NCBI GenBank assembly: GCA_018894995.1
Contig: JAHIOZ010000098.1
Location: 1 to 26,338 of the forward strand
Source: Patescibacteria group bacterium
Lineage (GTDB): Bacteria > Patescibacteriota > Minisyncoccia > Phycocordibacterales > UBA12079
Direction: 5' to 3'
Length of the DNA stretch: 26,338 nt
Each line of letters begins with the position of its first letter. Position 1 is the first letter of the stretch. The notes under the pieces were generated by a model. That model saw only the letters and a list, made by a program, of their open reading frames with translations. It did not search any database and was not told the DNA's origin. Both the position numbers and the translations under genes were made by a program. Below, one piece after another: positions 3,389-24,964 of the stretch.

Positions 3389-3466
3389 AACGACGAAAGG
3401 CTTTGCCTTTCGTCGTTAACGATAAAACTCTGCTATCGTCTTTGCGAGCCGAAGGCGTGGCAATCT
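3389..3466. repeat. GACG...CGTC triloop hairpin followed by a CGTC-tagged REP-like element
   Basis: AACGACGAAAGGC-TTT-GCCTTTCGTCGTT (3389-3417); CGTCTTTGCGAG-CCGAAGG-CGTGGCAATCT (3437-3466). Confidence 0.75.
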
Positions 3467-3583
3467 AGGAGTTTCGTAATAGTTTTCTTGACTCCGCCCT
3501 CGCAAATAACTATACTCAACGCAGGTTAGTAGTATTGAAAAAGGAAATTTTTTCCTAAAAAATATAAAAGAAAGGAGACTTGG

Positions 3584-4126
3584 ATGAACAAAAAACAAAC
3601 AATAACAACAAAGAGAATTGATTGGGACACACTTTTTATGCTCCATGTTCGTGCTTATGCGATGAGGAGTGCCTGTGTAAATTACAAGGTTGGTGCGGTT
3701 TTTACCAAAGACAATAGAGTTCTGACGGGAGGTTTTAATGGACCACCGAGAAAGGAACCGAATTGTTGCGAGGTTGGTTGTGCAAAGCGTGATGCAGGCG
3801 GAAAAATAATGCCTGCCGGCTCAGGTCTTTGCAGGGGTGCTCATGCTGAAATGAACAGTTTGGCAAATGCTTGCATTGGCGGTGTTGGTTTAAGCGGTGT
3901 GACAGTTTATTGTTCTTTTAGTCCTTGCTGGGATTGTGCCAAACATTTGGTTAATCTTGGTATCTCCCGTTTTGTGTACGAGGTTGAGTATACTGAAGAA
4001 GAAGGTCAGCGAGCCCTTGATTTGCTGAAACGCCGAGGTGTCGAATTGGTTCATTTTACTTTTGACGAATCAGTTTTACTTGATTTTCAGAATTTTAACC
4101 CCGTAGCAAAGGAGAAAAGCAAATGA
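3584..4126 (+). CDS. dCMP (deoxycytidylate) deaminase-family protein
   Basis: HAE and PCWDC zinc motifs, KVGAV, GFNGPP; AAGGAG SD. Confidence 0.9.
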   Translation: MNKKQTITTKRIDWDTLFMLHVRAYAMRSACVNYKVGAVFTKDNRVLTGGFNGPPRKEPNCCEVGCAKRDAGGKIMPAGSGLCRGAHAEMNSLANACIGGVGLSGVTVYCSFSPCWDCAKHLVNLGISRFVYEVEYTEEEGQRALDLLKRRGVELVHFTFDESVLLDFQNFNPVAKEKSK

Positions 4127-4896
4127 GTAAATTCAATTTTCTTGAAGAATACGATCTCGGTAATGCTTGGTTTTCTGCCCTAGATACTATTATGTCGAAA
4201 GGTCGAAGATATCTTATTACGAGTGGGAGTTATGAAGGTATCCACAGAATTGGTATGCCTACTTTGATTAATATCGAAAATCCCGGAAATAGACCTCTTT
4301 TTCCGATAATTCCTGATGGAATTCCGGCTCCGACTAACGAAGAAGATATTAACGAATATGTCGGGTATCTTGTAAACGGAGAAAAACAACCTAACGAGCA
4401 TTATACCTATGGGGAAGACTTGCACTGGCTTGTTGAGTGGACTATCAAGCATTACAAGAATTTTGGTCATGGGAATAATCATTGTTATATGACTGTCGGG
4501 CGTCCCGAAACTGTTCATTTTTACGATCGGGATGTCAATTATTCTGAAGATATTAAGGTCGTTAGCGCACCGGATATTTCTAGAATTCATCACATTGATA
4601 ATGCATGGAATAAAAATCATGCCATCAAAACAAGCTCCCAATGTCTTCGCGGTATTGATACATGGATTGACGATGGTAAACTTCATTTCTGGGTTTACTT
4701 CCGGTCCTGGGATTTGTGGGGTGGTTTTCCTGTCAATCTTGGTGGAATTCAGCTTCTCAAAGAATATATGGCGGCGGAGATTGGCGTCGGTGACGGCTCA
4801 ATGACCGTTGCTTGTAAAGATCTTCATGTGTACGAACACACTTGGGTTGTTGCGCTTATGCGTCTTAAAAAAGACGAAAGTCTCCTCAAAAGATAA
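4123..4896 (+). CDS. thyA: Thymidylate synthase-like protein (short, archaeal-like ThyA)
   Basis: QCL catalytic Cys, YFRSWD, FPVNL, LHVYE motifs; ATGA overlap with the deaminase. Confidence 0.82.
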   Translation: MSKFNFLEEYDLGNAWFSALDTIMSKGRRYLITSGSYEGIHRIGMPTLINIENPGNRPLFPIIPDGIPAPTNEEDINEYVGYLVNGEKQPNEHYTYGEDLHWLVEWTIKHYKNFGHGNNHCYMTVGRPETVHFYDRDVNYSEDIKVVSAPDISRIHHIDNAWNKNHAIKTSSQCLRGIDTWIDDGKLHFWVYFRSWDLWGGFPVNLGGIQLLKEYMAAEIGVGDGSMTVACKDLHVYEHTWVVALMRLKKDESLLKR

Positions 4897-4909
4897 AATT
4901 TGTTTCTCC

Positions 4910-4940
4910 AAAGCCTCCACTCGAAAGGGTTGGGGCTTTT
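4910..4940 (+). terminator. Intrinsic terminator
   Basis: AAAGCCTCCACTC-GAAA-GGGTTGGGGCTTTT. Confidence 0.7.
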
Positions 4941-5002
4941 CTTATGTCTTTTTTTCGGTTAATATTTACCTAATGGATTAAACAAAGCGAGTTAAACAAA
5001 AA

Positions 5003-6760
5003 ATGATTAAAAACGAATTGGAAAAAATAATAAAAAAAGCTTTGGCGGATTTGGGAATTGAAGCCGAGAGTGTTTGCTTGGATCATCCTGTTGATTTGGC
5101 TATGGGAGATTATTCAACAAATGTCGCGATGGTTTATGCAAAAAAAATCGGACAAAATCCCCGCGAACTCGCCGAAAAAATCGCCGAGAAAATCAACTTG
5201 GAAACCCGGTTTCCAAGTGAAATGTTGGAAAAGGTGGAACCGGCTGGGGCTGGTTTTATAAATTTTTATTTGAGCAAAGACTTTTTTGAAAATAATATAG
5301 CTGAAATTTTAAAAGCGGGGGAGAAATATGGAAGCAATGAAAGTTTGAAAGGGCAGAAAATTTTGATTGAGCACAGCTCACCAAACTTGTTTAAAGAATT
5401 TCATATTGGGCATATGGTTAATAATTCAATCGGTGAAGCAATTACAAGAATTATCAAAAATTCCGGTGCTGATGTAAAAGTCATTTCTTATCCGTCGGAT
5501 GTTGGGCTTGGGATTGCAAAAACTATTTGGGCTATAAAAAACTATGATATTACTGGATTAGAAAAAGATTTTTTATTTAACAATAGTAAAATACTAGATG
5601 AAAAAATTAAAATTCTGGGAGTTGCTTACACTTTAGGTAATTTAGCGTATAAAGATCACGGAAATGAAAAACAAGAAATAGATGAAATAAACAAAAAAAT
5701 TTATAACAAATCTGACGGGGAAATAAATAAAATTTATAACGAAGGTAAAAAATTAACTCTCGAACACTTCGAGATCATCGTTAAAAAGTTAGGTTCAAAA
5801 TTTGATGATTATATTTTTGAAAGTGAGGCAGGAGAAATTGGGAAAGAAATTGTAAAAGAAAAAATAGGAGAAGTTTTTGAGGAAAGCGAAGGGGCTGTGG
5901 TATTCAAAGGAGAAAAATATGGTTTACATACTCGCGTTTTTTTAAATTCTCAAGGGTTACCAACTTATGAAACAAAAGATTTAGGTTTGCTCAAGTTAAA
6001 ATTTGATAAATATCATCCAGATAAGTCTATTTTTATAACAGACAATGAGCAGAATGAATACATGAAAGTCATGTTGAAAGCAGGAGAACAGATAAATTCT
6101 GCTTGGGCAGAAAAAACAAAACATATTGGACATGGACGGCTTCGTTTTCTAGACGGGCGACTTTCTTCAAGGGAAGGTAATGTTTTGACAGCACTTAAAC
6201 TTCTCGGCGACATCCAGATGAAAGTTTGGGATAAAATGAATTCTTCAAAAAATATAACTAAAAACGAAATATCAAAAGCTTCCTTTTGTGTTTCTGGTGG
6301 GGCTGTAAAATACGCAATATTAAAATCATCAACGGGAAAAAATATTATTTTTGATAAAGAAAAAGCTTTAGCTTTAGAGGGGAACACCGGACCATACTTG
6401 CAATACACCTATGCTCGAGCGAAATCGGTTATTGAAAAAGCAAAAAAAGAAAACATCGCAACTTGGAAACCGGGTTTCCAAGTGGAATTAAGGCTGTTGA
6501 ACAGCCTTAGTGAGGTTGAAAAATTGCTTTATCGTTTTCCGGAAGTTGTTGAGAGGGCGGGGGAGGAATATGAACCGCATTATATCGCGACTTATTTGTT
6601 TGAATTGGCACAGGCTTTTAACTCTTATTATGGGAATAATAAAATTGCGGACAAAGAAGATGAAAATGCACCTTACAAAGTTGCATTGACGGAAGCGGTT
6701 GCTCAAACAATCAAAAACGGACTTTGGCTTTTGGGGATTGAGGCGCCGGAAAAACTATAA
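5003..6760 (+). CDS. argS: Arginine--tRNA ligase
   Basis: GDYSTNVAM, GAGFINF, SPNLFKEFHIGH (HIGH), GPYLQYTYAR, C-terminal LLGIEAPEKL. Confidence 0.97.
   Translation: MIKNELEKIIKKALADLGIEAESVCLDHPVDLAMGDYSTNVAMVYAKKIGQNPRELAEKIAEKINLETRFPSEMLEKVEPAGAGFINFYLSKDFFENNIAEILKAGEKYGSNESLKGQKILIEHSSPNLFKEFHIGHMVNNSIGEAITRIIKNSGADVKVISYPSDVGLGIAKTIWAIKNYDITGLEKDFLFNNSKILDEKIKILGVAYTLGNLAYKDHGNEKQEIDEINKKIYNKSDGEINKIYNEGKKLTLEHFEIIVKKLGSKFDDYIFESEAGEIGKEIVKEKIGEVFEESEGAVVFKGEKYGLHTRVFLNSQGLPTYETKDLGLLKLKFDKYHPDKSIFITDNEQNEYMKVMLKAGEQINSAWAEKTKHIGHGRLRFLDGRLSSREGNVLTALKLLGDIQMKVWDKMNSSKNITKNEISKASFCVSGGAVKYAILKSSTGKNIIFDKEKALALEGNTGPYLQYTYARAKSVIEKAKKENIATWKPGFQVELRLLNSLSEVEKLLYRFPEVVERAGEEYEPHYIATYLFELAQAFNSYYGNNKIADKEDENAPYKVALTEAVAQTIKNGLWLLGIEAPEKL
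5196..5218. repeat. 23-nt palindrome in frame inside argS (copy 1)
   Basis: ACTTGGAAACC-C-GGTTTCCAAGT. Confidence 0.85.
6461..6483. repeat. 23-nt palindrome in frame inside argS (copy 2)
   Basis: ACTTGGAAACC-G-GGTTTCCAAGT. Confidence 0.85.
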
Positions 6761-6804
6761 TTCAGTTTTTAGTTTTTAGTTGATAGTTTTTAGCATAAAA
6801 AATT

Positions 6805-6835
6805 AAAATCGTAAAAGCGAAGCTTTTGCGGTTTT
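6805..6835. terminator. GC-GAA-GC hairpin after argS; related perfect copy at 25832-25870
   Basis: AAAATCGTAAAAGC-GAA-GCTTTTGCGGTTTT. Confidence 0.65.
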
Positions 6836-6882
6836 TGATTGTCGGCTTTTTAAATTTCTCATTTTAATGTATTATTTCTTTT

Positions 6883-9800
6883 ATGGATAATGAAAAAAAT
6901 ATAGATAATAAATCCGAAACTGCCCAAAGCGAGGAAAAGATTTTGGAGTTTTGGCGGGAGAATAAAATTTTTGAAAAGTCGTTGGACTCTAAACCTTCGG
7001 ACGGGCGAGGAAAAGAAGCGCCCAAAGGTGATTTTGTTTTTTACGACGGTCCGCCTTTTGCGACTGGTTTGCCTCACTATGGGCATATTTTGGCTGGAAC
7101 AATCAAAGATATTATTCCGCGTTATCAGACAATGCTCGGCAAAAAAGTTTCTCGTCGTTGGGGTTGGGATTGTCATGGTTTGCCGATTGAAAATTTGATT
7201 GAAAAGGAACTCAATTTAAAAACTAAACAAGATATTTACGATTACGGAGTGGAGAAATTCAATGAAGCTGCCAAACAAAGCGTACTTCGTTATGATGTTG
7301 ATTGGAAAAAGATTATTCCGCGAACGGGTCGCTGGGTGGATATGGGTTCAAGTTATCAAACAATGGATACTTCTTATTCTGAATCCATTTGGCATATTTT
7401 TAAAACTATTTATGATAAAAATTTAATTTACGAAGGACATAAAGCGATGCATCTTTGTCCTCGTTGTGAGACAACTCTTTCAAACTTTGAAGTTAATCAG
7501 GGGTATAAAGATATTAAAGATTTAACGGCGACGGTGAAATTCAAACTTGATGTCGGACAAAAAATTGGTGATTTTGTTGCAGATGATAATACTTACATTT
7601 TGGCGTGGACGACTACGCCGTGGACTTTGCCTGGAAATGTTGCACTCGCAGTAAATGATGGAATCATTTATGCTCGAATTCAAAAATCAAATATCAAAAA
7701 TCAAAATGAAAATGCAAAATTAAAAAATAACGAGACATATATTGTTGCTAAGGAAAGAATTGTTGGTGTTGTTGGTGATGAAGAATACGAAATAATTGAA
7801 GAATTCAAAGGTTCAGAATTGATTGGAAAATCTTACAAACCACTTTTTGATTATTATTTAAAAGATGAAAATTTGGAAAATCGCGAGAATGCCCGCCCGC
7901 AACGCCTGAGCGAGGCTCAGCCTAGCGATGGCGGGCGGGGTTGGAAAATTTACGGTGCGGATTTTGTGACTACTGAAGATGGAACTGGAATTGTTCACAT
8001 CGCTCCTGCTTTTGGTTCTGACGATATGGAGTTGGGGAAAAAAGAAAATTTACCGTTTATTCAGCATGTTTCAGTTGATGGAAAATTCAAACCGGAAGTT
8101 GGTGATGGCTTGGCTGGGTTGTATGTAAAACCTAAAGATGATTCTGCGAATGGACAAGACCATATGTCGACCGATATTGAAATAATAAAATTGTTGGCTA
8201 AAAAAGAAGCTCTGTTTTCAAAAGAAAAAGTCACTCACTCTTATCCTCATTGTTGGAGATGTGAAACACCTCTTTTAAATTACGCGACTTCGTCGTGGTT
8301 TTTGAAAGTTACGGGAATTAAAGATGAAATGATTAAAGTTAATCAAGGTGTTAATTGGGTGCCGGAAAATATGCGAGATGGAAGATTTGGAAAGTGGCTT
8401 GAAGGAGCGAGAGACTGGGCGATTTCAAGGACAAGATTTTGGGGGGCACCGTTGCCTGTTTGGAGGTGCCAAACTGGGAAATTCGAAACCTTAAATTCTA
8501 AATCCGAAACAAATTCAAATGGCCAAAATTTAAATGTTCAAAAAAATATCGGTTGCGGGGCGATGAGGGTTGTTGGTTCAATTGCCGAGTTGAAAGAGAA
8601 TTTGCCGAAAAGAAATAATATTTTTGTGATGCGACACGGAGAGGCGGACAACAACACTAAAAATGTAATCAGTACTCAAAAACTCAACGAGCATCATTTA
8701 ACCGAGAAAGGAAAAGAGCAGGTTTTGGGGGCGATTGGAAATTTAAAAAATCAAAAAATTGATTTAATTATTTCTTCTCCGTTTGTAAGAACAGTTGAAA
8801 CAGCTGAATTGGTAGCTGAAGGTTTGGGTTTAAAAAAAGAAGAAATTATTTTTGACGAGAGAATCGGAGAAATTAATTTGGGGGATATGGACGGAAAGAG
8901 TAATAAAGATTATCACAAATATTTTGAATCCCAATTGGAAAAATTCACTAAAACTCCACCAAACGGAGAAAGTTTGACCGACTTGAAAAAACGAGTCGCG
9001 GAATTTCTTTTTGAAATTAATGAAAAGTATGAAGGCAAAAATATTTTGGTTGTAACTCACGAATATTCTTTTTGGATGATGATGACCGTTTCTGATGCTT
9101 TGACGGATACTCAATCTGTAAAAATGAAAGACGATGAAAATATTGTTCAAAATGCGGAAGTCAGAGATTTGGATTTCAGAAGTTTACCTCATAACAAAAA
9201 TTACGAGATTGATTTGCATATGCCTTACATCGATGAGATTAAATTCAAATGTGCTTGCGGTGGAGAAATGAAAAGAATTCCTGAAGTGTTTGACTGTTGG
9301 TTTGAATCGGGGGCGATGCCTTATGCTTCCAATCACTATCCTTTTGAAAATTTGGATAAATTTAATCCTGAAAAAGAAATCGGTTTTCCGGCAGATTTTA
9401 TTGCCGAGGGTCAAGACCAAACACGAGGGTGGTTTTACACTTCGCTTGTTTTGGCAACCGCTTTGTTTGGAAAAACTTCTTATAAAAATGTAATTGTAAA
9501 CGGAATGGTTTTGGCGGAGGACGGAAAGAAAATGTCAAAGAGTTTGAAAAATTATCCTGACATTAATTATATTTTGGATAAATATGGAGCTGATGCGATG
9601 CGATATTATATGATAAATTCGCCGATTGTTCGGGCGGAAGATTTGAATTTCTCGGAAAAAGGAGTGGACGAAGTTTTGAAAAAAATTATTTTGAAAGTAA
9701 AAAATGTTTATTCGTTTTATGAATTGTATAAAGATGCTTTAAAAGAAAAAATTAATCCGCAGGATAGTAAAAATGTCTTGGATATTTGGATTTTATCCAG

Positions 9801-10659
9801 ATTGAATCAGTTGAACAATGAAATCACAACAGGATTAAATAACTACGAATTAGATCGAGCTTCACGACCGATTATGGATTTTGTGGATGATTTGTCTACT
9901 TGGTATATCCGTCGTTCTCGTGACAGGTTTAAGGGTGAAGATGAAAAAGATAAAAATTTTGCTTTGGCGACAACACAATTTGTATTGGTGGAATTTTCAA
10001 AATTGATTGCTCCGTTTATGCCGTTTTTGTCAGAAGAACTCTGGCAGAAAATTGAAAATGAAAATCTCAAAATGGAAAATGATAATGTAAAATTTAAAAT
10101 TACATCGGTGCATTTGCAGGATTGGCCAAAAGCGGGAAATGTTGATGAAAAAGTTTTGGAAGATATGAAAAAAGTTAGAGGGGTTGTTTCAATGGTATTA
10201 GAAGTAAGGGCAGAAGCTGGTTTGAAAGTTCGTCGACCGTTGGGTAAAGTTACAATTTATGGTTTATCTTATGAAAAAATAGATAAACAATTGCTGGATA
10301 TTATAAAAAATGAAGTTAATGTAAAAGATGTTGTTTTTGAAAAAGGAGATAGTAGAGTAGAGCTTGATGAAAAAATTACACCCGAATTAAAAATTGAGTG
10401 GCAATACCGAGAACTTTTTAGACATATTCAAAGAATGAGAAAAGATGCCAGACTTGTGCCAAGTGATGTTGTCGGCTTAATCGTTGAAACTTCCGATGAC
10501 GGAGAAAAATTGATTAAGAAATTTGAAGAAGATTTGAAAAAAACCACTGGAATTAAAGAAATTAAATTTGAGAAAAATATTGAAGATTTTGAAAATTCAA
10601 TCGTGCAAGGAGGAATTAAAATCGATGATTTGGAATTCAAACTGAGAATTGAAAAATAA
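6883..10659 (+). CDS. ileS: Isoleucine--tRNA ligase, type 2, with an inserted histidine-phosphatase domain
   Basis: FYDGPPFATGLPHYGH, GWDCHGLP, WTTTPWTLPGN, GTGIVHIAP, KMSKS; RHG domain at about aa 577-766. Confidence 0.97.
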   Translation: MDNEKNIDNKSETAQSEEKILEFWRENKIFEKSLDSKPSDGRGKEAPKGDFVFYDGPPFATGLPHYGHILAGTIKDIIPRYQTMLGKKVSRRWGWDCHGLPIENLIEKELNLKTKQDIYDYGVEKFNEAAKQSVLRYDVDWKKIIPRTGRWVDMGSSYQTMDTSYSESIWHIFKTIYDKNLIYEGHKAMHLCPRCETTLSNFEVNQGYKDIKDLTATVKFKLDVGQKIGDFVADDNTYILAWTTTPWTLPGNVALAVNDGIIYARIQKSNIKNQNENAKLKNNETYIVAKERIVGVVGDEEYEIIEEFKGSELIGKSYKPLFDYYLKDENLENRENARPQRLSEAQPSDGGRGWKIYGADFVTTEDGTGIVHIAPAFGSDDMELGKKENLPFIQHVSVDGKFKPEVGDGLAGLYVKPKDDSANGQDHMSTDIEIIKLLAKKEALFSKEKVTHSYPHCWRCETPLLNYATSSWFLKVTGIKDEMIKVNQGVNWVPENMRDGRFGKWLEGARDWAISRTRFWGAPLPVWRCQTGKFETLNSKSETNSNGQNLNVQKNIGCGAMRVVGSIAELKENLPKRNNIFVMRHGEADNNTKNVISTQKLNEHHLTEKGKEQVLGAIGNLKNQKIDLIISSPFVRTVETAELVAEGLGLKKEEIIFDERIGEINLGDMDGKSNKDYHKYFESQLEKFTKTPPNGESLTDLKKRVAEFLFEINEKYEGKNILVVTHEYSFWMMMTVSDALTDTQSVKMKDDENIVQNAEVRDLDFRSLPHNKNYEIDLHMPYIDEIKFKCACGGEMKRIPEVFDCWFESGAMPYASNHYPFENLDKFNPEKEIGFPADFIAEGQDQTRGWFYTSLVLATALFGKTSYKNVIVNGMVLAEDGKKMSKSLKNYPDINYILDKYGADAMRYYMINSPIVRAEDLNFSEKGVDEVLKKIILKVKNVYSFYELYKDALKEKINPQDSKNVLDIWILSRLNQLNNEITTGLNNYELDRASRPIMDFVDDLSTWYIRRSRDRFKGEDEKDKNFALATTQFVLVEFSKLIAPFMPFLSEELWQKIENENLKMENDNVKFKITSVHLQDWPKAGNVDEKVLEDMKKVRGVVSMVLEVRAEAGLKVRRPLGKVTIYGLSYEKIDKQLLDIIKNEVNVKDVVFEKGDSRVELDEKITPELKIEWQYRELFRHIQRMRKDARLVPSDVVGLIVETSDDGEKLIKKFEEDLKKTTGIKEIKFEKNIEDFENSIVQGGIKIDDLEFKLRIEK
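7891..7938. repeat. GC-rich 48-nt imperfect palindrome in frame inside ileS
   Basis: CCCGCCCGC...CTGAGC-GAG-GCTCAG...GCGGGCGG; encodes ARPQRLSEAQPSDGGR. Confidence 0.75.
8611..9180 (+). other. Histidine phosphatase (PGM/CobC-like) domain nested in IleRS
   Basis: R584-H585-G586, SSPFVR636T, E663, VVTH726. Confidence 0.85.
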
Positions 10660-10675
10660 ATTCCGTCGGCACCAT

Positions 10676-10772
10676 CGTCTTTGCGAGAAAACAGGCGTGA
10701 AATTTTGGCGTCTAAAATGGACGGTCGTCCATTTTAGACGCCAAAATTTCACGCCTGTTTTCGTGGCAATCC
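10676..10772 (+). repeat. CGTC-tagged REP-like element enclosing a 37-bp perfect inverted repeat
   Basis: CGTCTTTGCGAG-[74 nt]-CGTGGCAATCC; arms 10687-10723 and 10726-10762. Confidence 0.85.
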
Positions 10773-10797
10773 GGAAACTTTCGCAGTTAAAACTTTA

Positions 10798-10843
10798 TAG
10801 ACCCGCACCAATTTTTTTACAAAAAAGTTGGTGGCGGGTAGAC
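10798..10843. repeat. 36-nt hairpin insertion flanked by a TAGAC duplication
   Basis: TAGAC at 10798-10802 and 10839-10843; empty-site version at 13081-13115. Confidence 0.65.
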
Positions 10844-10867
10844 TTTCAACTTTACAAACTTTATACT
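10839..10867 (+). promoter_or_regulatory. sigma70-like promoter, leaderless arrangement
   Basis: TAGACT-17 bp-TATACT, 6 nt before ATG 10874. Confidence 0.6.
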
Positions 10868-10873
10868 TAATTT

Positions 10874-11572
10874 ATGATTTACAGACACAAACATTTTCAA
10901 TTGGACACAAAAAGCAGAAAAGTTTTTGACCAAAACGGGAAAGAATTGATGATAACTGGTAATGCTTTTAGATTGCTTGCTTTTCTTTGTGAACACAAAA
11001 ATGCAACAATCACCGAAATAGGGGAATATTTGGATCACGCTAAAGAATATACCGAAAATCATATTCGTCAGTACAGATACAAAATAAAATCAATTATAGG
11101 AGAAGAAATCATCGATTATAAAAATTCAATTTATTCAATTGTCGGTGATATTGAAACCGTTGAAAAACTCAACTTGGAACTCCGAGTTCCAAGTAAAACA
11201 GGAAAAGACGACCGTATTACGGATTTATTACACCCTAATAGTTTAATATTTGGCATAAGAATGAAAAATATCAGCAAAAAACCGGCGATAATCGTATCAA
11301 TTTTATTATTACTCACATTTTTCCCGTGGGCTTATGGTTATTATACGGTTTTGCGATGGGCGGTAAGTTTGGTTTCAATTTATTACATAATCGGTTTTTA
11401 CAGCAAAACAAAAGTTTTTGATTTCAAAATCTGGACACTTGTTGCCATCGCCGTCCTGTTCAATCCAATCGCTCCGATTTTTTTGCAAAGTAAAACAGTT
11501 TGGGGATTTTTTGACATCATAGTCGCCGGATTTTTCGTTTATTTGATAATTAAAACTAAAGAATTGAAATAA
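10874..11572 (+). CDS. N-terminal OmpR-like winged-helix domain fused to a DUF6804-like membrane domain
   Basis: FQLDTKSRKV...FRLLAFL...IRQYRYKIK wHTH pattern; C-terminal AYGYYTVLRW...LFNPIAPI...W..D hydrophobic domain. Confidence 0.65.
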   Translation: MIYRHKHFQLDTKSRKVFDQNGKELMITGNAFRLLAFLCEHKNATITEIGEYLDHAKEYTENHIRQYRYKIKSIIGEEIIDYKNSIYSIVGDIETVEKLNLELRVPSKTGKDDRITDLLHPNSLIFGIRMKNISKKPAIIVSILLLLTFFPWAYGYYTVLRWAVSLVSIYYIIGFYSKTKVFDFKIWTLVAIAVLFNPIAPIFLQSKTVWGFFDIIVAGFFVYLIIKTKELK

Positions 11573-11576
11573 AATT

Positions 11577-12651: not shown

Positions 12652-12926
12652 GTAACCACTCACACCTATAAACACCAAACTCATCAAAATCGATAACTGA
12701 CCTGGATCGCCACACTTTTCCGCTTCGCTCCGAAGTTCGCGAAGACGAAATGCCTTCGGCATTTCGTCGACGGATTTTCTTCTAGAAAATCCGTCTTCGC
12801 GAGCATGACACCATTTTTAAGTTTTTTGAAAAACAAAGTTTTTCAAAAAACTTAAAAATGGTGTCATGCGTGGCGACCCAACACTTATTAATTGGTCGTG
12901 GGAAGTCAACAAGTGTGAGTGGTTAC
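12652..12926 (+). mobile_element. MITE-like element copy A (275 bp)
   Basis: 14-bp TIR GTAACCACTCACAC/GTGTGAGTGGTTAC; flanks TTTTGTTT/CTTTGTTT (7/8 match). Confidence 0.85.
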
Positions 12927-13115: not shown

Positions 13116-13122
13116 CTTACAT

Positions 13123-17512: not shown

Positions 17513-17574
17513 TGCGGAACGAACACGGAACTATGCAGAACACACGCGAAAGAATTAGGTGAAAATTAAAATAA

Positions 17575-17602
17575 AAAAATGTGTCGCAAGCGACACATTT
17601 TT
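17575..17602. terminator. Probable bidirectional terminator
   Basis: AAAAATGTGTCGC-AA-GCGACACATTTTT between convergent genes. Confidence 0.7.
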
Positions 17603-17609
17603 GACTAAA

Positions 17610-18080
17610 TTATTTAATGAGATGAAAGATTTTTTGCGGGTCAAATCCTTGAATAATTAATAAAATTTCTAAAAAATCTTTTTTGCTCATTTGCCATCTG
17701 AAGATGATGTTGAAACAGTCGTTCCTTGTTTCTTTTGCTGTGAGAAAGAAACCTTTATCTTTTTCGGGGTTGGGATTTTCGCACTCGTGCAATTTATCCG
17801 GAGGTCTTATTTTTGAAAGTTTTTCTGCAAATTTATCCCAAAAACATAGGCATAAAATAAAGGCATGTTCTTCGGATGACCCTGTTGTTGGGTGAGCACC
17901 GCAAATAACATTTAAATGAGAAGTTTCTACTCTGAAAATTTCTTCTTCTCCTGGAAATTGATACAGGGTAGCTACCTTTCTACCGCATTTTTTACAAATA
18001 AATTTTGTTGTGTCAGGTACTGTTTCTTTTTTTGAACACATTTTACCAACAATATTATTATCATACTTCGCTGTTATCAT
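17610..18080 (-). CDS. Hypothetical protein with CxxC motif (156 aa from the second ATG)
   Basis: ORF; AGGAGG SD precedes the ATG at 18080; CKKC motif. Confidence 0.65.
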   Translation of the reverse strand: MITAKYDNNIVGKMCSKKETVPDTTKFICKKCGRKVATLYQFPGEEEIFRVETSHLNVICGAHPTTGSSEEHAFILCLCFWDKFAEKLSKIRPPDKLHECENPNPEKDKGFFLTAKETRNDCFNIIFRWQMSKKDFLEILLIIQGFDPQKIFHLIK

Positions 18081-18178
18081 AATCTTTCCCCTCCTCATAT
18101 TTAATTGTTATCAAAAATTTCCCGATTTCTGCATATTACTATATAATAGATTGATACTAAAAAGCAATAGTTAGAGAA

Positions 18179-18463
18179 GTAACCACTCATACTTGTTGAA
18201 TTTTCATAACTAATTAATAAGCGATGGATCGCCACGCATGACACAATTTTTAAGTTTTTTGAAAAACTTTGTTTTTCAAAAAACTAAAAAATGGTGTCAT
18301 GCTCGAGAAGACGGATTTTCCAGAGGAAAATCCGTCGACGAAATGCCGAAGGCATTTCGTCTTCGCGAACTTCGGAGCGACAGCGGAGAAGTGTGGCGAT
18401 CCAGAGTAACATCGTCAATTATCGATTTTAATGAGTTTGATGTTTATAAGTGTGAGTGGTTAC
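18179..18463 (-). mobile_element. MITE-like element copy B (285 bp), inverted relative to A
   Basis: TIRs GTAACCACTCATAC/GTGTGAGTGGTTAC; flanks TTAGAGAA/TTAGGGAA (7/8); colinear with A. Confidence 0.85.
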
Positions 18464-18566
18464 TTAGGGAATTTAATAATCAATTTTTCAGTTTGGTTTT
18501 CCGCGTAATTCCGCGTTCGTTCTGCGACAATCCGCGATTTATTCGACTGGAAGGAGAATAAATACT

Positions 18567-19841
18567 ATGAAATACAACAAAAAAATATTAAAAAACGGAT
18601 TAAGAATAATTACTGTGCCGATGCAGGATAACAATACTGTGACAGCTTTGGTGTTGGTGGAGGCCGGTTCCAAATATGAAAACGAAAAGAATAACGGGAT
18701 TTCTCACTTTTTGGAGCATATGTGTTTTAAAGGTACTGACAACCGTCCCAATCCGGGTGATATTTCTCACGAGCTTGACGCTTTGGGTGCTCAGTCAAAC
18801 GCTTTTACTTCTCAGGAATTTACCGGTTATTATGCCAAAGCTCACACAAAGCAAACCCATAAATTAATTGATATTATTTCTGATTTGTATTTGAACCCAA
18901 TTTTCAACGATGCGGAAATTGAAAAAGAAAAAGGTGTGATTATTGAAGAAATGAATATGTATAAAGATTTGCCGATGAGAGACATCCACGATGTTTTTAT
19001 GCGTTTGTTGTATGGTGACAGTCCAACCGGGAGAAATATTGTTGGAACAAAAGAAATCATTAAATGTGTAATTAAAAAAGATTTTGAAGATTATCGAAAA
19101 AATCACTATGTTGCTTCGGCGACGACCGTTGTGGTGTCGGGGAAATTTGATGAGAAAAAAGTAATTAAAGACATTGAAGAAAGGTTTAAAAATGTCAGTG
19201 TAGAGAAACATCATAAAAAAGAAAAAGTTAAAGAAAATCAAAAAGCCCCGCAAATTGCAATTAAAAATAAAAAACTTGACCAATCCCATTTGATTTTGGG
19301 AGTGAGGGCTTTTGATTTATTTAAAAAAGACAGTGCCGTTGTTTCAGTTATCGCGGGTATTCTTGGCAAGGGGATGAGTTCTCGATTGTTTTTCAAATTA
19401 AGAGAAGAAATGGGAGTTTGTTATTATGTGCGAGCGGGGAATAATGCTTTTACCGATCACGGTTTTTTCAATATTTCAGCGGGAGTTGACAACAGTAGGG
19501 TGGAGGAAGTGGTCGGGGTTTTGTTGGAGGAAATGAGAAAGTTAAAAAAAGATTTGGTGAGTAATTTTGAATTAAAAAAAGTTAAAGAATATATGACTGG
19601 TAGTTTGTTTCTCGGCCTTGAGTCTTCCGATGATTTGGCGGAATATTACGGAATTCAAGAAATTTTAAATCAAGAAATAAAAAAACCAAAAGAAAAAGCC
19701 AAAAGAATCAGAGAAATTACCGCTCAAGACATAAAGAGAGTGGCAAACAAAATTTTTAAAAATGAAAGTCTAAACCTAGCGGTTGTCGGACCGATAGATG
19801 ATAAGAAGAAAGAGGAGATTAAAAAGATGTTTGGAATTTAA
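18567..19841 (+). CDS. M16 family (pitrilysin/insulinase) zinc peptidase
   Basis: GISHFLEHM (HxxEH), NAFTS.E.TGYY, EKEKGVIIEE, SSRLF.KLREE.G..Y. Confidence 0.95.
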   Translation: MKYNKKILKNGLRIITVPMQDNNTVTALVLVEAGSKYENEKNNGISHFLEHMCFKGTDNRPNPGDISHELDALGAQSNAFTSQEFTGYYAKAHTKQTHKLIDIISDLYLNPIFNDAEIEKEKGVIIEEMNMYKDLPMRDIHDVFMRLLYGDSPTGRNIVGTKEIIKCVIKKDFEDYRKNHYVASATTVVVSGKFDEKKVIKDIEERFKNVSVEKHHKKEKVKENQKAPQIAIKNKKLDQSHLILGVRAFDLFKKDSAVVSVIAGILGKGMSSRLFFKLREEMGVCYYVRAGNNAFTDHGFFNISAGVDNSRVEEVVGVLLEEMRKLKKDLVSNFELKKVKEYMTGSLFLGLESSDDLAEYYGIQEILNQEIKKPKEKAKRIREITAQDIKRVANKIFKNESLNLAVVGPIDDKKKEEIKKMFGI

Positions 19842-19864
19842 GTAAAATTTTTTCCAAAAATTTT

Positions 19865-20012
19865 AGAATTAAGAATTAAGAATAACGAATTATGAATGAT
19901 GAATCTAGAATACGACGACGGATTTTGCTTCGCAAAATCCGTCGTTTAATAGTTTAAAAACCTAAAATTAAAAAACGACCAAATGTGGCGACCGTCACAT
20001 TTGGTCGTTTTT
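19865..20012. repeat. 7-nt-period tract plus two hairpins
   Basis: AGAATTA-type units at 19865-19911; hairpins at 19915-19945 (TTC loop) and 19971-20012. Confidence 0.7.
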
Positions 20013-20034
20013 GAGTCATTAAATTTCAAAATAA

Positions 20035-20057
20035 AAAGCCCACTTACAGCGGGCTTT
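20035..20057 (-). terminator. Terminator for the minus-strand orphan
   Basis: On the minus strand AAAGCCCGCT-GTA-AGTGGGCTTT followed by Ts. Confidence 0.5.
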
Positions 20058-20078
20058 AGTCTTGAGAAAGAAAATAAA

Positions 20079-20450
20079 TTATGGTTCAATCACTACAACC
20101 ATATTTCTTGTTTTTTCTTTGCAAATAATAAAAATATTGTAACCTTTCTCACCATCGCCATCAATACTACCTTTTCGAACATTTTCAAGGGTTTCGCAGA
20201 TATAGCTCAAAATGTGGTTTGTAAAATCTTTACTCTTCACATTTTCAGCTACATAGGACAAAATTTTGACGGAGTTCCTCGTCACAGAGATTACATTTAT
20301 TGCCTCTGATATAACCTGCACCCAATTTTTCTCGTTGAAGGTAAAACCTAGAGGGGTTGACTCCGGTTCAATCGAAGGCCCGAGCAATGTTACTAACTCT
20401 TTTTGAACTAATTGTTCTTTGAATAAAATACCTTCCATTAATTGGTTCAT
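20079..20450 (-). CDS. Hypothetical protein (123 aa, start MNQLMEG)
   Basis: ORF; AAGGAG SD 5 nt before the ATG at 20450. Confidence 0.6.
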   Translation of the reverse strand: MNQLMEGILFKEQLVQKELVTLLGPSIEPESTPLGFTFNEKNWVQVISEAINVISVTRNSVKILSYVAENVKSKDFTNHILSYICETLENVRKGSIDGDGEKGYNIFIICKEKTRNMVVVIEP

Positions 20451-20649
20451 TTTGTTCTCCTTGGGGTTATCCCTTTTGAGTTTTTTAAGAATAACTTTAT
20501 TACTGATATCCGAAAGAAGTGTATAAAAAAATAATCGGTAAGTCAATTTAAGAAAACCCAAGTTCAAAAATTAGTTGCAACACCTAAGTCTATTAATTAA
20601 GATTTAGGCAATATGAAAAATAAAAAAGCAGGTATTTAATCAGGTTTAC

Positions 20650-20684
20650 AAAAAACCACGGAAGCAAGGCTTCCGTGGTTTTTT
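20650..20684. terminator. Terminator downstream of the DUF378 gene
   Basis: AAAAAACCACGGAAGC-AAG-GCTTCCGTGGTTTTTT, 16 bp perfect. Confidence 0.75.
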
Positions 20685-20718
20685 ATTGAAATACCCGTAA
20701 ATTTAAGAGAGCTGAGTA

Positions 20719-20940
20719 TTAAGCGCAGGAACATTTTCTGCAACTTATCAGCATAGTGATTGCTGAAATTCCAACAAGAAGATATACAATATTTTCAACT
20801 GTAGGCCATTGACCTGCAATCAAATTTACAATATTCCAATTTCCTCCTAAGAAATATCCCAAACCTGTTAACCCCCAGTTAAGTGCCCCGATGAACATTA
20901 ACCAGTAAGCGATAGTTCCTGTTGTTGTTTTACATTTCAT
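20719..20940 (-). CDS. DUF378-family small membrane protein
   Basis: IGALNWGL.G...N.V..I...IVY.LVGISA motif. Confidence 0.88.
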   Translation of the reverse strand: MKCKTTTGTIAYWLMFIGALNWGLTGLGYFLGGNWNIVNLIAGQWPTVENIVYLLVGISAITMLISCRKCSCA

Positions 20941-21022
20941 AACAAAAATTATTTATATATTTATAATAATTCGACTCAATTAAATTATAACAGTTTTAAA
21001 TAATTGTCATAGTTGATAACTA

Positions 21023-21222
21023 GTAACCACTCACACTTATAAACATCAAATTCAATAAAATCGATAACTGACATTAGTTAGTCTGGATCGCCACACTTCT
21101 CCGCTTCGCTCCAAATTTCGTCGACGGATTTTCCTCTGGAAAATCCGTCTCTGCGAGCGATAGTGTGGCAGTCTAGAAATTTATTCATAATCCGTAAGGA
21201 TTTAACAACTGTGAGTGATTAC
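21023..21222 (+). mobile_element. MITE-like element copy C (200 bp)
   Basis: Left TIR GTAACCACTCACAC, degenerate right TIR CTGTGAGTGATTAC; perfect 8-bp TSD GATAACTA. Confidence 0.85.
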
Positions 21223-21265
21223 GATAACTAAAGTCGGCAGTCTGAAAATGACAAAACTATAAAAC

Positions 21266-21322
21266 ACGACGAAACCCAAAGGGTTTCGTCGTCACTTACT
21301 ACTTACTACTTATTACTTAATA
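21266..21322. repeat. Hairpin plus 7-nt-period tract, reverse-complement relative of 13747-13799
   Basis: ACGACGAAACCC-AAA-GGGTTTCGTCGT, then CTTACTA/CTTATTA units. Confidence 0.7.
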
Positions 21323-21334
21323 CTTTTTTCTCCC

Positions 21335-21363
21335 TTGCTACTTATTCTTCACTATTTTATACT
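21335..21363 (+). promoter_or_regulatory. sigma70-like promoter, leaderless arrangement
   Basis: TTGCTA-17 bp-TATACT, 6 nt before ATG 21370. Confidence 0.65.
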
Positions 21364-21369
21364 ATAGTT

Positions 21370-22404
21370 ATGGATAAAGAACTTACAATCAACATAACTT
21401 CCGGGACAATTGTTAAAACAATATTGTTTGTTTTGCTTGTCGTCTTACTGTATTTTTTGAAAGATTTGGTTTTGGTCATATTAACCGCGATTGTGATTGC
21501 TTCTTCTGTTGAGCCGATAACCAAATGGTTTATTCAAAGAAAAATTCCAAGACTGGTTGCTGTTATTTTGATTTATTTTTCCGTAGCTTTTTTGGTTGCA
21601 GGACTTTTCTTTTTGCTGATTCCTCCTTTATTGGATGATGCCTCCAGTCTTATGGCAACCCTCCCTCAATATTTTGAGGACATAAAATTGAATACTTCTT
21701 TAGGAACGGGAATAGATACAACTTTTTCTTTAAGAGAATTTGTTTCTGAATTTAGAGATGGGATAACAGGTGCGACCGGAAGTGTCTTACAAACAGTCAG
21801 CTCAATTTTTGGTGGTGCAATCAACTTTGTTCTTATCATCATACTTTCCTTTTATTTGGCAGTTCAAGAGTTTGGAATCGCCAGTTTTTTGAGGATTATA
21901 ACTCCGGTCAATAAAGAAAAATACATTATAGATCTGTGGAAAAGATCGCAGTTTAAAATCGGTTTGTGGATGCAAGGGCAACTGCTTTTAGCTTTAATCA
22001 TTGGAGTATTGGTGTATCTCGGACTTACAATCTTGGGTATTAAGTATGCTTTCCTTTTTGCTTTATTGGCTGCTATTTTGGAGCTTATCCCTTTGTTTGG
22101 CCCCGTAATTGCGGCTGTCCCTGCTATTATTGTTGGTTTTGTTGACGGAGGGGCAACTCTCGGTTTTCTTGTTACAGGATTTTATATTATTATTCAACAG
22201 TTTGAAAATCATCTGATTTATCCTTTGGTTGTTAAAAAAGTGGTTGGGGTTCCTCCTTTACTGGTTATTCTCGCTCTTATTATTGGAGCGAAGTTAGCCG
22301 GTTTTTTGGGTATACTTTTGTCAGTTCCTGTGGCTGCTGCTCTTATGGAATATGTTCATGACATAGAAGCAGAAAAGAAAAAATTGATGCAGGAGAATTC
22401 TTAA
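21370..22404 (+). CDS. AI-2E family (PerM/UPF0118-like) transporter
   Basis: Multi-TM protein with LELIP.FGP, QQFENHLIYP.V...VG.PP...ILAL..G..L.G.LG..LSVP.AA. Confidence 0.92.
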   Translation: MDKELTINITSGTIVKTILFVLLVVLLYFLKDLVLVILTAIVIASSVEPITKWFIQRKIPRLVAVILIYFSVAFLVAGLFFLLIPPLLDDASSLMATLPQYFEDIKLNTSLGTGIDTTFSLREFVSEFRDGITGATGSVLQTVSSIFGGAINFVLIIILSFYLAVQEFGIASFLRIITPVNKEKYIIDLWKRSQFKIGLWMQGQLLLALIIGVLVYLGLTILGIKYAFLFALLAAILELIPLFGPVIAAVPAIIVGFVDGGATLGFLVTGFYIIIQQFENHLIYPLVVKKVVGVPPLLVILALIIGAKLAGFLGILLSVPVAAALMEYVHDIEAEKKKLMQENS

Positions 22405-22437
22405 TCTTAATTGATGATAATTTGTTGTCGTCTTTGT

Positions 22438-22521
22438 GTGTGGATTTTGGGTGGTTTTTTTTGAACGCCCCACCCTCTAAAGAGGGTGGGGCGTTCAAAA
22501 AAAACCGCCCAAAATCCACAC
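22438..22521. repeat. 40-bp inverted repeat with one G.T pair, between the AI-2E gene and metG
   Basis: 22438-22477 pairs with 22482-22521; loop TAAA. Confidence 0.8.
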
Positions 22522-22567
22522 GACAACCCAAAATCACTTTAACTTTATATAATAATATAAACCAGTT

Positions 22568-24124
22568 ATGGAAAATCTAAACAAAAAATTTTATATTACA
22601 ACCGCCATTGATTATGTGAATGGCAAACCTCATTTAGGCCACGCTTTGGAAAAAATACAGGCGGATGTTTTGGCTCGTTACAAAAGATTGATACTAGGAG
22701 ACGATGATATATATTTTTTGACAGGTGCAGATGAGCATGGGTCTAAAATATTTAGAACAGCTGAAAAACAAGGTAAAGAAGTTCAATCTTTTGTCGATGA
22801 AAACACAGAAGTTTTTAGAAATCTTTGGAAGACATTGAATATTTCAAATAATGATTTTATCAGGACTTCCGATAAAAAAAGGCATCGGGTTGGTGCTCAG
22901 GCTTTGTGGAACAAAATTTTTGAAGCCGGTGATTTGGAGAAAGCAAAATACAGCGGTTTGTATTGTGTTGGTTGCGAAGCTTTTGTCACGGAAAAAGATT
23001 TGATTGACGGAAAATGTCCCAATCACGATACTGCACCGGAAAAAATAGAAGAAGAAAATTATTTTTTTAAAATTTCCAAATATATTGAAGATGTAAAATC
23101 AAAAATTGAATCTGATGAATTGCAAATAATTCCTGCCGGCAGAAAAAATGAGATTTTGGCGATGATTGAGAGGGGGGTGGAAGATATCAGTTTTTCTCGT
23201 CCTAAAGAAAAATTGAGTTGGGGAGTTGATATTCCCAATGATGATTCTCAAGTAATGTATGTCTGGTGTGACGCTTTGGCAAACTATATTTCTGCTTTAG
23301 GTTTTGGTTCAGATGGTGATGATAATTTTAAAAAATATTGGCCGGCTGATGTTCATATGATTGGAAAAGACATTTTGCGTTTTCATGCAATTGTTTGGCC
23401 TGCGATGTTGTTGTCGGCAGGGTTGCCCTTGCCTAAAAAAATATTTGTTCACGGATTTTTGACTTCTGATGGTAAAAAAATGTCTAAAAGTTTAGGTAAT
23501 GTTATTGACCCGGTTGATTTGATTAACGAGTACGGAACGGAAGCTTTGAGGTATTTTCTCTTGCGAGAAGTAACTCCTTTTGAAGACGGAGATATCACTT
23601 TAGAAAAATTTAAAGAAGCTTATAATGCCAATCTCGCCAACGGTTTGGGAAATTTGGTGAGTAGAATTTTAACAATGACACAAAATTCAAACGTTAATAT
23701 AGCTATTGCGGAAAGTAATAAAGATGTATTGTTTGAGCAGTTTAAGACAGATAAATTTTCAGGAATTAGAAATACTGAAACTGGAGCTGGTGGAGAAAAT
23801 TTTATAGAAAAAAAGATGCCGAGCTATCTTTTTTATGAAAAAGAACACTTTTTTATTTTTGGTGATACACTTGATTTTTTTGATTTTCAAAAAGCAATGG
23901 ATCGTATTATGGCTGATGTAAAATCAATGGATGTTTTTATTACTAGAACAGAGGTATACAGAAAAGATTCAAAAGATAGAGATAAAAATCTAATGCGACT
24001 TTTAATCAATTTAAAAAATGTAGCTTTGTCTTTGCAACCTTTTATGCCCGAAACTTCTGAAAAAATTCAACATCTAATTAAAGAAAACAAATCTCCGGAG
24101 ACACCTTTATTTAAAAGGAAGTAG
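22568..24124 (+). CDS. metG: Methionine--tRNA ligase (short form, no C-terminal Trbp domain)
   Basis: YITTAIDYVNGKPHLGH, GADEHG, CVGCE...CP.H knuckle, YVWCDAL.NY, KMSKS. Confidence 0.97.
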   Translation: MENLNKKFYITTAIDYVNGKPHLGHALEKIQADVLARYKRLILGDDDIYFLTGADEHGSKIFRTAEKQGKEVQSFVDENTEVFRNLWKTLNISNNDFIRTSDKKRHRVGAQALWNKIFEAGDLEKAKYSGLYCVGCEAFVTEKDLIDGKCPNHDTAPEKIEEENYFFKISKYIEDVKSKIESDELQIIPAGRKNEILAMIERGVEDISFSRPKEKLSWGVDIPNDDSQVMYVWCDALANYISALGFGSDGDDNFKKYWPADVHMIGKDILRFHAIVWPAMLLSAGLPLPKKIFVHGFLTSDGKKMSKSLGNVIDPVDLINEYGTEALRYFLLREVTPFEDGDITLEKFKEAYNANLANGLGNLVSRILTMTQNSNVNIAIAESNKDVLFEQFKTDKFSGIRNTETGAGGENFIEKKMPSYLFYEKEHFFIFGDTLDFFDFQKAMDRIMADVKSMDVFITRTEVYRKDSKDRDKNLMRLLINLKNVALSLQPFMPETSEKIQHLIKENKSPETPLFKRK

Positions 24125-24129
24125 TGCGT

Positions 24130-24175
24130 TTGCTTTTTCTTTTTTTTATTACTATAATCAATATTAATTAATATT
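24130..24175 (+). promoter_or_regulatory. TA-operon promoter with a palindromic operator candidate
   Basis: TTGCTT-17 bp-TATAAT (24130-24158); perfect palindrome AATATTAATTAATATT at 24160-24175. Confidence 0.6.
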
Positions 24176-24190
24176 AATCAAAATAAAATT

Positions 24191-24427
24191 ATGGTAACAA
24201 CAATGCCTATTACAAAAGCAAGGATTAATTTAGGGGCGGTGGTTAAAAGAGTCAGTTTAAATAAAGAAAGAATAATCTTGGAAAAAGATGGTTTTCCGGT
24301 TGCCGTTATCGTTGATTTGGAAACATTTGAGGATATTGTTGATTCTGTTGATTTAGAAAAAGCAGTTGGAACATCAAAAAGAGAGTTTATAAGCATAGAA
24401 AATGCAATGAAGAAATATGCTCTATAA
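24191..24427 (+). CDS. Phd/YefM-family antitoxin
   Basis: MPITKARINL..VVKRV....ERIILEKDG.PVAVIV pattern; upstream of and overlapping the toxin. Confidence 0.85.
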   Translation: MVTTMPITKARINLGAVVKRVSLNKERIILEKDGFPVAVIVDLETFEDIVDSVDLEKAVGTSKREFISIENAMKKYAL

Positions 24428-24683
24428 AGTTCTTCTTGATAAATCAGCAGATAAATCTTTAGAAAAAATAAACAAATCAGACAAACAGATTGGTCAAAAG
24501 ATTTTACTTGCTTGTTTGGAATTAAAAAATTTTTCAGAAACCTCTGCTGGAATAAAGAAACTGCACTGCCCTTTTGTTGGTTTTAGAAGAAGAGTTGGCA
24601 GGTATAGGATTTTATTTTTAGTAAATAATAAATCTGTTGAAATTTATAAAATAGGATTGAGAAATAATGTTTATAAAAAATGA
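24417..24683 (+). CDS. RelE/ParE-family toxin
   Basis: YKV.L.KSA.K.L.K...IKKL....FR.RVG.YRILF......VEI.KIG.R.NVYK. Confidence 0.88.
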   Translation: MLYKVLLDKSADKSLEKINKSDKQIGQKILLACLELKNFSETSAGIKKLHCPFVGFRRRVGRYRILFLVNNKSVEIYKIGLRNNVYKK

Positions 24684-24744
24684 TGGATTTTAATTTAAAA
24701 AGATATAATATTTAATTAAATTTATTTTGTGAAGGTCTGTTTTT

Positions 24745-24964
24745 GTAACCACTCACACTTATTAAATTTATACGATTATTGAAATTGCTCGTATATTTGA
24801 TATAGTTAGTCTGGATTGTCGCGCTATCGCTCGCAGAGACGGATTTTCCTTTGGAAAATCCGTCGACGAAATTTGGAGCGAAGCGGAGAAATGTGGCGAT
24901 CCAGACTAATTAATATCAATTATCGATTTTAATGATTTTGATATTTATAGGTGTGAGTGGTTAC
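24745..24964 (-). mobile_element. MITE-like element copy D (220 bp), inverted relative of C
   Basis: 14-bp perfect TIR; perfect 8-bp TSD CTGTTTTT. Confidence 0.88.

Follow-up and report, generated by a model that had tools for sequence, protein, structure and literature searches.

A widespread REP-like shell with a variable palindromic core in the genome of a groundwater patescibacterium

The subject of this work is a short repeat, which we call the frame, in a 26,338-nt stretch of DNA (the window) that is the entire contig JAHIOZ010000098.1 of a Patescibacteria group bacterium (assembly GCA_018894995.1). Its copies keep a constant shell, CGTC-TYYGCGAG-[X]-YGTGGCRRYCCAG, around a core, X, which is self-complementary in every copy. 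We consider it fairly probable that the frame is the shell of a non-autonomous repetitive extragenic palindrome (REP) of the CGTC-tagged type, the core of which is reshaped by 1) copying of whole units, 2) template switching, and 3) insertions at the apex of the hairpin. The CGTC-type REP itself is already known; what is new here is the expanded, self-perfecting core and the identity of the shell across phyla. An initial annotation, made from the letters of the window alone, had located six frames and proposed that their loop is a slot that acquires or grows new palindromes. All six were re-checked in the sequence and lie, with their inserts, where it had placed them, and the two perfect stems that it described, of 37 and 32 bp, are real; it overlooked the mirrored partner frame present in each composite copy (Table 1). 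The idea of a slot is partly supported: the core is the tolerant, fast-changing and insertion-prone part of the repeat, and unit copying together with remodelling in place appear to explain most of its diversity.

The window (contig C110) belongs to a genome bin of 0.89 Mb with 186 contigs and 36% G+C, and the sequencing runs that contain it are groundwater metagenomes. We refer to this genome as G000 and to the other genomes of the genus as G001 to G006 (seven in total, one of them closed).

Anatomy and copy number of the frame

Extraction of all genomic matches gave 38 exact hits to the degenerate pattern and none to the reversed-pattern control, and relaxed matching raised the number to 133 credible frames, or 1.1% of the genome. 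The recurrence seen in the window is thus far beyond chance, and further copies with variable inserts, on whose existence the initial annotation had made its proposal depend, clearly exist. The shell reads CGTC, T, YYGC, GA, G-[X]-C, GTG, GCRR, T, CCA(G), that is, an unpaired CGTC head, a 4-bp basal stem (YYGC/GCRR), a fixed GA/GTG internal loop, a G-C closing pair around X, and a CCA(G) tail. Across the 133 copies the YY/RR positions of the basal stem covary (TT/AA in 50, TC/GA in 37, CT/AG in 26, broken in 20), and so does the closing pair (G-C in 94, G-T in 19, A-T in 16). The head begins with C in 112 copies and with T in 20, its invariant positions 2-4 read GTC in 132-133, and the tail bases C, C and A are kept in 130, 130 and 120 copies, respectively. 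When folded as DNA, frames again form the basal stem, internal loop and X hairpin, with z-scores from -4 to -16 (-13 and -16 for the palindromes with the 37-bp and 32-bp stems).

The core spans 5 to more than 86 nt in this genome, with stems of up to 42 bp, and its lengths are multimodal, with 25 copies at 5-10 nt, 31 at 21-22 nt, about 60 at 65-80 nt, and few between 22 and 60 nt. Its median is 65 nt here; in the closed genome of the congener G005 a sample gave 6 nt, although two long X of similar AT-rich design occur there too. Described as unrelated by the initial annotation, the 65- and 74-nt palindromes of the window have this AT-rich design in common, a point that speaks against the slot. 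Perfect stems of at least 12 bp number 507 in the genome and one after shuffling; 50 of the 75 stems of at least 28 bp lie in frames.

The initial annotation had assigned the repeat to the CGTC-tagged palindromic class, and the assignment stands. The frame shares with the CGTC-tagged REP superfamily (Di Nocera, De Gregorio and Rocco 2013, BMC Genomics 14:522, PMC3733652), which includes RPE-4 and RPE-6 of Rickettsia, the unpaired CGTC (sometimes TGTC) head, the CCA(G) tail, the inverted dimers, A-T pairs at the base of the stem, in-frame intragenic copies, occurrence in several phyla, and the lack of a dedicated transposase. It differs in its stem and in its loop. The published families have stems of 8-9 bp with A/T in the first two pairs and loops of 4-5 nt, whereas the frame has a 4-bp stem, an internal loop and one closing pair, starts with T-A pairs in 50 copies and with T-A/C-G mixtures elsewhere, and has a "loop" that is itself a hairpin with nested elements. 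With regard to the individual families CGTC-1 to CGTC-4, the comparison is with described features, not with consensus sequences. Hosts of the candidate phyla radiation (CPR) fell outside that survey, and our literature searches turned up neither REPs described from CPR bacteria nor REP loops said to be expandable. The palindromic elements of Rickettsia that Ogata and colleagues reportedly described in 2000 and 2002 are said to sit in frame inside housekeeping genes and to be read through as extra loop peptides. The repeat studied here differs from these in its host phylum, in its conserved shell with a hypervariable core, and in being mostly intergenic (114 of 133 copies).

Other candidate classes were inspected by eye and set aside: a kink-turn or hammerhead core, the consensus nucleotides of which are absent; a promoter, since the spacing is variable; and an integron attC site, since there are no cassette arrays and copies occur in both orientations and inside genes (IntI was not searched for). 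Rfam 15 returned only hairpin matches at chance level at the frames and no curated family; the only match above the gathering score in the window is tRNA-His.

Turnover of the core

Most copies that share an X appear to descend from copying of the frame and X together. In the 17-copy CATGACACC family of X, the flanks are unrelated from copy to copy and stop exactly at CGTC and CCAG, which argues that the whole unit was copied. More generally, X clusters correlate strongly, if not completely, with frame haplotype, the same cluster occurring on two or three haplotypes. The initial annotation had advised clustering the inserts, searching for them elsewhere in the genome and comparing orthologous loci between strains. 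Clustering and searching placed the major families, e.g., CATGACACC, only inside frames. As for strains, an exact-protein look-up with rplK gave no match, a scan of metagenomes returned only relatives at 45-65% identity and self-BLAST of the bin gave too few redundant contigs; the orthologous loci compared are therefore those of sister species.

At such loci X differs between species. At the first of two murB sites, G000 and G001 carry an orthologous insertion; they share the hairpin remnant upstream and the 5' half, the 3' half is degenerate, and X measures 65 nt in G000 versus 5 nt in G001. A different palindromic derivative occupies this site in G002, and nothing is inserted in G005 or G006. 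The mutM site holds just a GACG...CGTC hairpin, of the kind that commonly precedes frames, in G003, this hairpin and a frame with a 9-nt X in G002, and a frame with a 21-nt X in G000; it is empty in G001 and G005. These differences fit growth and deletion of X alike, a point that weighs against the slot. Within the genome, X of 10, 29 and 69 nt form a series with shared outer stems, the outer stem AAAACAGGCGTG is combined with at least four inner modules, one inner module recurs under several outer stems, and some copies have chimeric arms. A four-combination test of the re-assortment of outer and inner modules gave no complete set, so modular exchange is shown by the shared modules and chimeric arms only.

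The arms themselves bear what appear to be marks of correction in place. Thirteen X are unique, with a nearest relative at 57-79% identity, and in 12 of these 13 the arms are 93-100% complementary. Spacers flip within X clusters (AAA/TTT, GGTC/GACC, CGAG/CTCG), and in the one family with an asymmetric base (GTTTTTTTG...CAAAAAATC) the asymmetry stays put with either spacer. A 41-bp perfect palindrome at 3244-3329 has the last five codons and the stop codon of rplK as its left arm; G005 and G006 also have a palindrome at this position, the distal arm of which tracks each species' own synonymous and stop-codon differences, and the apex is unrelated among the three species. Template switching homogenises arms, inverts spacers and expands inverted repeats (PMC8604942, PMC8794818, PMC13100816). 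As arm homogenisation, spacer inversion and expansion are its published signatures, our observations fit template switching at replication, and judging from this pattern X is most likely remodelled in place by it. The Ripley model of template-switch evolution likewise involves homogenised arms, inverted spacers, and palindromes that grow into the unique sequence beside them; it is not known to have worked systematically on a REP core, or to have left perfect stems as dense as the 507 in these 0.89 Mb. In E. coli, SbcCD and exonuclease VII (ExoVII) cut hairpins and suppress template switching at quasipalindromes. Searches for SbcD (TIGR00619) and for the large subunit of ExoVII (PF02601) came back empty in all seven genomes of the genus and positive in control genomes, and a lack of these enzymes may have been permissive for the remodelling of X.

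The core is also a landing site. E2, a non-palindromic element of about 95 nt with short AAAATTAT-type inverted ends, has five copies (contigs C88, C145, C146 and C171), and all five are centred in X palindromes, of five different families and in both orientations. Two of the four intergenic copies of another REP, linked to a gene on contig C107 (see below), lie exactly at the apex of a cluster-7 X (C54, C76), a larger element with terminal inverted repeats (TIRs) interrupts the apex of another X, and nesting reaches up to three levels. Insertion sequences such as IS1397 and ISKpn1 target REP loops. They resemble the present case in that other mobile DNA lands in a REP hairpin. They differ in that the guests here are themselves non-autonomous hairpin or TIR elements of tiny size, and what they enter is the apex of an expanded palindrome. 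Such targeting was the subject of Tobes and Pareja (2006), as far as the citation in PMC3733652 conveys it.

Shared modules, apex insertions, differing orthologous X and the 10-, 29- and 69-nt series are what stands of the slot proposal. Its strict form would make the long palindromes independent mobile hairpins that integrate like cassettes into the loops of pre-existing short frames, every long X marking an acquisition of its own. This would account for the multimodal lengths of X, with few intermediates between 22 and 60 nt, for the same cluster on two or three frame haplotypes, and for short versus long X at orthologous frames, and the nested insertions prove that the apex can be targeted. 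It is harder to reconcile with the restriction of the major families (CATGACACC) to frames, with flanks that end exactly at the frame borders, as for movement of whole units, and with the replacement of the short loop by the long X with neither remnant nor duplication. Moreover, the arms are perfect even in singleton X, so that homogenisation in place would be needed anyway. We regard the cassette explanation as unlikely.

We favour the reading in which the shell alone is conserved, presumably because an agent of copying or binding reads it on single-stranded DNA. X would need only to pair with itself: across bacteria it is a hairpin of 5-24 nt, which here would have expanded to perfect palindromes of 65-80 nt. 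Three processes would act on this unit: 1) whole frames with their X would be copied to new sites, which would give rise to subfamilies; 2) X would be remodelled in place by template switching, with homogenised arms, inverted spacers, chimeric arms and possibly lengthening; and 3) the single-stranded apex of long hairpins would attract nested insertions of small elements. The data show directly the anatomy, copy number and covariation of the frame, its mobility, the differing X of orthologous sites and the nested insertions; mobility through single-stranded DNA and template switching as the mechanism are what we infer.

Mobility, distribution and the agent that reads the shell

The frame is mobile DNA rather than an oriented RNA signal. 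First, 114 of the 133 copies are intergenic in a genome where the intergenic share is only about 25%, and their orientation relative to the flanking genes (++ 29, -- 20, +- 12, -+ 11) has no bias, divergent spacers not being depleted. Second, X is followed by CGTGGC and not by the T-run of an intrinsic terminator. Third, frames lie in frame inside murB (twice), leuS, alaS, mutM and murI, as units of 46-93 nt translated as SSLR..AWQS; reading from the opposite strand presumably gives LDCFVASLLAMT-like peptides. The murB, mutM and alaS orthologues of congeners are shorter at exactly the frame positions and the murI product of G003 is about 13 residues shorter; by this comparison, the insertions in these four genes are lineage-specific. 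Fourth, where G000 has a frame at the 3' flank of ileS, G002, G003, G005 and G006 have an ordinary palindrome or no hairpin (the locus of G001 ends at the stop codon).

The shell is widespread and patchy. Of 401 genomes sampled from the order, 13 contain its exact form, in several families and mostly as inverted dimers with a short X; in two congeners the 5' half is present in 46 and 62 copies, and the 3' half is a CGAAGC variant. Head-to-head pairs are also present in G005 and G006. When one genome of each prokaryote species was scanned, at least 118 stretches proved to contain the exact 25 shell bases; they belong to many CPR lineages, Alpha-, Beta- and Gammaproteobacteria, Melainabacteria, Dependentiae, Clostridia and one flavobacterium. 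Among 87 of these cross-phylum frames there are 57 distinct X, all short hairpins (5-24 nt) with compensating changes, and most of the frames form tail-to-tail heterodimers. Copy number varies across genomes from 1 to more than 130. A single shell in many phyla, around an X that varies with compensation, points to an element that is ancient or spreads horizontally.

A second insertion point was observed in the 3' half of the frame, between GCRA and TCCA, where a CCTGCC...GGCAGG palindrome of 20-45 nt is found at loci L081, L085, L092, L093 and L095 of G005 and in the region downstream of rplK in G006 (L049).

The shell might alternatively be a binding or processing site that selection maintains for a ubiquitous host factor, on DNA or on a transcript, X being a spacer hairpin that is tolerated. 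The precedents proposed for such a role are gyrase or IHF at the REPs and bacterial interspersed mosaic elements of E. coli, and stabilisers of mRNA 3' ends. That 25 bases are identical across phyla while X varies with compensation, that the basal stem covaries and that many frames lie just after stop codons would then be expected, but the same factor would have to tolerate the lack of orientation bias and of depletion between divergent genes, in-frame copies in housekeeping genes that differ between species, a presence in only 13 of 401 genomes of the order with 1 to more than 130 copies across genomes, and the lack of both an Rfam match and a T-run after the hairpin. All considered, we find this explanation quite unlikely.

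As for an enzyme that could move the frame, the genome has four Y1/HUH genes, three of about 230 residues, and the predicted model of one product matches TnpA of IS608 and the REP-associated transposase of E. coli. In the systems of REP doublets and REP-associated tyrosine transposases (REPIN-RAYT; Bertels and Rainey 2011, PMC3116915; E. coli TnpA-REP, PDB 4ER8), as here, there are inverted hairpin doublets, high copy numbers and Y1/HUH proteins of the RAYT/IS200 fold. The difference lies in the cognate gene, as the RAYT-like genes here are flanked by three other palindromic REPs. Each of the three genes of about 230 residues has its own perfect palindrome on its flanks (AAATCCACAGT... on C71, ACTTGGAA... 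on C107, AAGTGGG... on C170), those on C71 and C107 are also invaded by theirs, and the Y1 genes inspected in three relatives are likewise flanked by their own, different palindromes. A cognate link with the frame was considered, given that frame dimers lie 0.2-3 kb from Y1 genes in G379, G016, G097 and G068; because each Y1 gene has its own palindrome, this closeness is not evidence of a pair, and G023 and G067 have frames and no Y1 match. The link was dropped. The 23-nt perfect palindrome ACTTGGAA..TTCCAAGT has 21 copies in the genome, 17 of them inside open reading frames, and since it flanks and invades the Y1/RAYT-like gene of C107, we take it for the cognate REP of that gene.

Several points weigh against the mobile REP with a remodelled core. 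No gene recurs beside frames in the 31 + 80 loci compared, and no enzyme could be linked to the frame in this bin, which is 80% complete and where the resident Y1 genes adjoin other palindromes. For selfish DNA, so exact an identity between phyla is unusual, and the shell could be read by a host factor. Template switching alone leaves the source of new arm sequence unexplained. Finally, X lengths are multimodal and not continuous, so that discrete insertion fits them better than gradual growth.

A more speculative scheme, to which we attach a low probability, would join some of these threads. The shell would be a universal socket read on single-stranded DNA by a ubiquitous host activity, and its hairpin cargo, free to evolve and growing by template switching into perfect palindromes of 30-40 bp where SbcCD and ExoVII are lacking, would capture RAYT-linked REPs and miniature transposons, with the outcome of a self-reinforcing "palindrome nursery" that makes new hairpins and protein loops. 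A universal host activity of this kind would explain the cross-phylum identity without a transposase.

Copies in the window and implications

Four of the six window frames named by the initial annotation lie inside composite elements of 200-285 bp, each of which holds two frames head to head (Table 1). These composite copies, A-D, are the only ones with the TIRs (14 bp) and target-site duplications (8 bp) of DDE-type miniature inverted-repeat transposable elements (MITEs); the solo frames have neither terminal repeats nor target-site duplications.

Table 1. Positions of frames, composite elements and associated palindromes in the window.
Feature	Position	Strand	Description
GACG...CGTC hairpin	3390..3416	+	12-bp stem with GACG...CGTC, 3-nt loop; about 20 nt upstream of the frame at 3437
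Solo frame	3437..3468	+	CGTC head, basal stem TTGC/GCAA, X = CCGAAGG (3449-3455), tail CTAG; downstream of rplK; folded
23-nt palindrome	5196-5218, 6461-6483		in argS
Solo frame	10676..10774	+	74-nt X (10688-10761), 37-bp perfect stem; directly 3' of the ileS stop codon
23-nt palindrome	11172-11194		in the DUF6804 gene
Composite MITE copy A	12652..12926	+	14-bp TIR GTAACCACTCACAC; 8-bp target-site duplication (7/8 match); head-to-head frame pair
Partner frame, copy A	12702..12747	-	mirrored; 21-nt X, apex mini-hairpin GCGAAGC
Two GACG...CGTC hairpins, copy A	12744..12795	+	between the two frame heads
Frame, copy A	12792..12881	+	65-nt X (12804-12868), 32-bp perfect stem; member of the 17-copy CATGACACC cluster
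Composite MITE copy B	18179..18464	-	inverted relative to A; target-site duplication 7/8
Frame, copy B	18224..18313	-	65-nt X of the same family as in copy A, 2 arm mismatches
Partner frame, copy B	18358..18404	+	22-nt X
Composite MITE copy C	21022..21222	+	perfect 8-bp target-site duplication (GATAACTA)
Frame, copy C	21146..21176		X = CGATAG; truncated partner 21083-21120
Composite MITE copy D	24745..24964	-	perfect 8-bp target-site duplication (CTGTTTTT)
Frame, copy D	24811..24841	-	X = CGATAG; truncated partner 24867-24904

The association raises the question of whether frames are the internal cargo of the GTAACCACTCACAC-ended MITE (GTAACCAC terminal repeats), with solo frames as decay products. 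Besides the four window copies with 8-bp target-site duplications, the same terminal repeat adjoins a frame in a Woesebacteria genome (L140) and in G067. Yet the genome has 20 matches to the terminal repeat against 133 frames, solo frames have sharp CGTC/CCAG borders and are inserted in frame as 46-93-nt units, and in most other genomes there are simple dimers without that repeat, all of which makes this origin very improbable. An artefact of assembly or amplification, in the form of chimeric inverted joins, hardly deserves any credence. The bin is fragmented and the frequency of frame halves roughly doubles near contig ends (6.2% versus 2.8%), but the same families are found at many loci with unique flanks, inside intact reading frames, and in independent genomes from other studies, including a closed genome of 752 kb. 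Rather, the enrichment suggests that frame repeats contribute to breaks in CPR assemblies.

The composite copies form two inverted pairs, 89-93% identical: A and B bracket 5.2 kb with recO and its neighbours, and C and D 3.6 kb with an AI-2E transporter and its neighbours. Such pairs could mediate inversion of the enclosed genes. Elsewhere in the window, positions 22402-22557 hold an imperfect inverted repeat with 77-nt arms and a 26-bp perfect core that ends in CCCTCT-AA-AGAGGG; at least eight palindromes with this apex occur in the genome, some in degenerate frames (C71, C88). The isoleucyl-tRNA synthetase contains a full histidine-phosphatase domain (Pfam His_Phos_1, E = 2.9e-33) inserted at residues 580-735 (8620-9087). 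Also inside ileS, an A-rich stretch of about 55 nt (10048-10102) has more than 20 matches at 80-92% identity in G006, and may be another dispersed repeat or low-complexity sequence.

In practical terms, frames add spurious-looking peptides (SSLR..AWQS) to annotated proteins. In biological terms, CGTC-tagged REPs are an old puzzle: they are widespread, they lie inside genes, and they have no known mobilising enzyme. A shell of 25 identical bases around a free core narrows what a mobilising or binding factor must recognise. The expansion of this core, more than tenfold, into perfect palindromes provides a natural system in which to study how palindromes originate, are kept up and become nested. 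Finally, that SbcD and ExoVII were not found in the genus suggests a testable link between reduced repair and hairpin-rich genomes.

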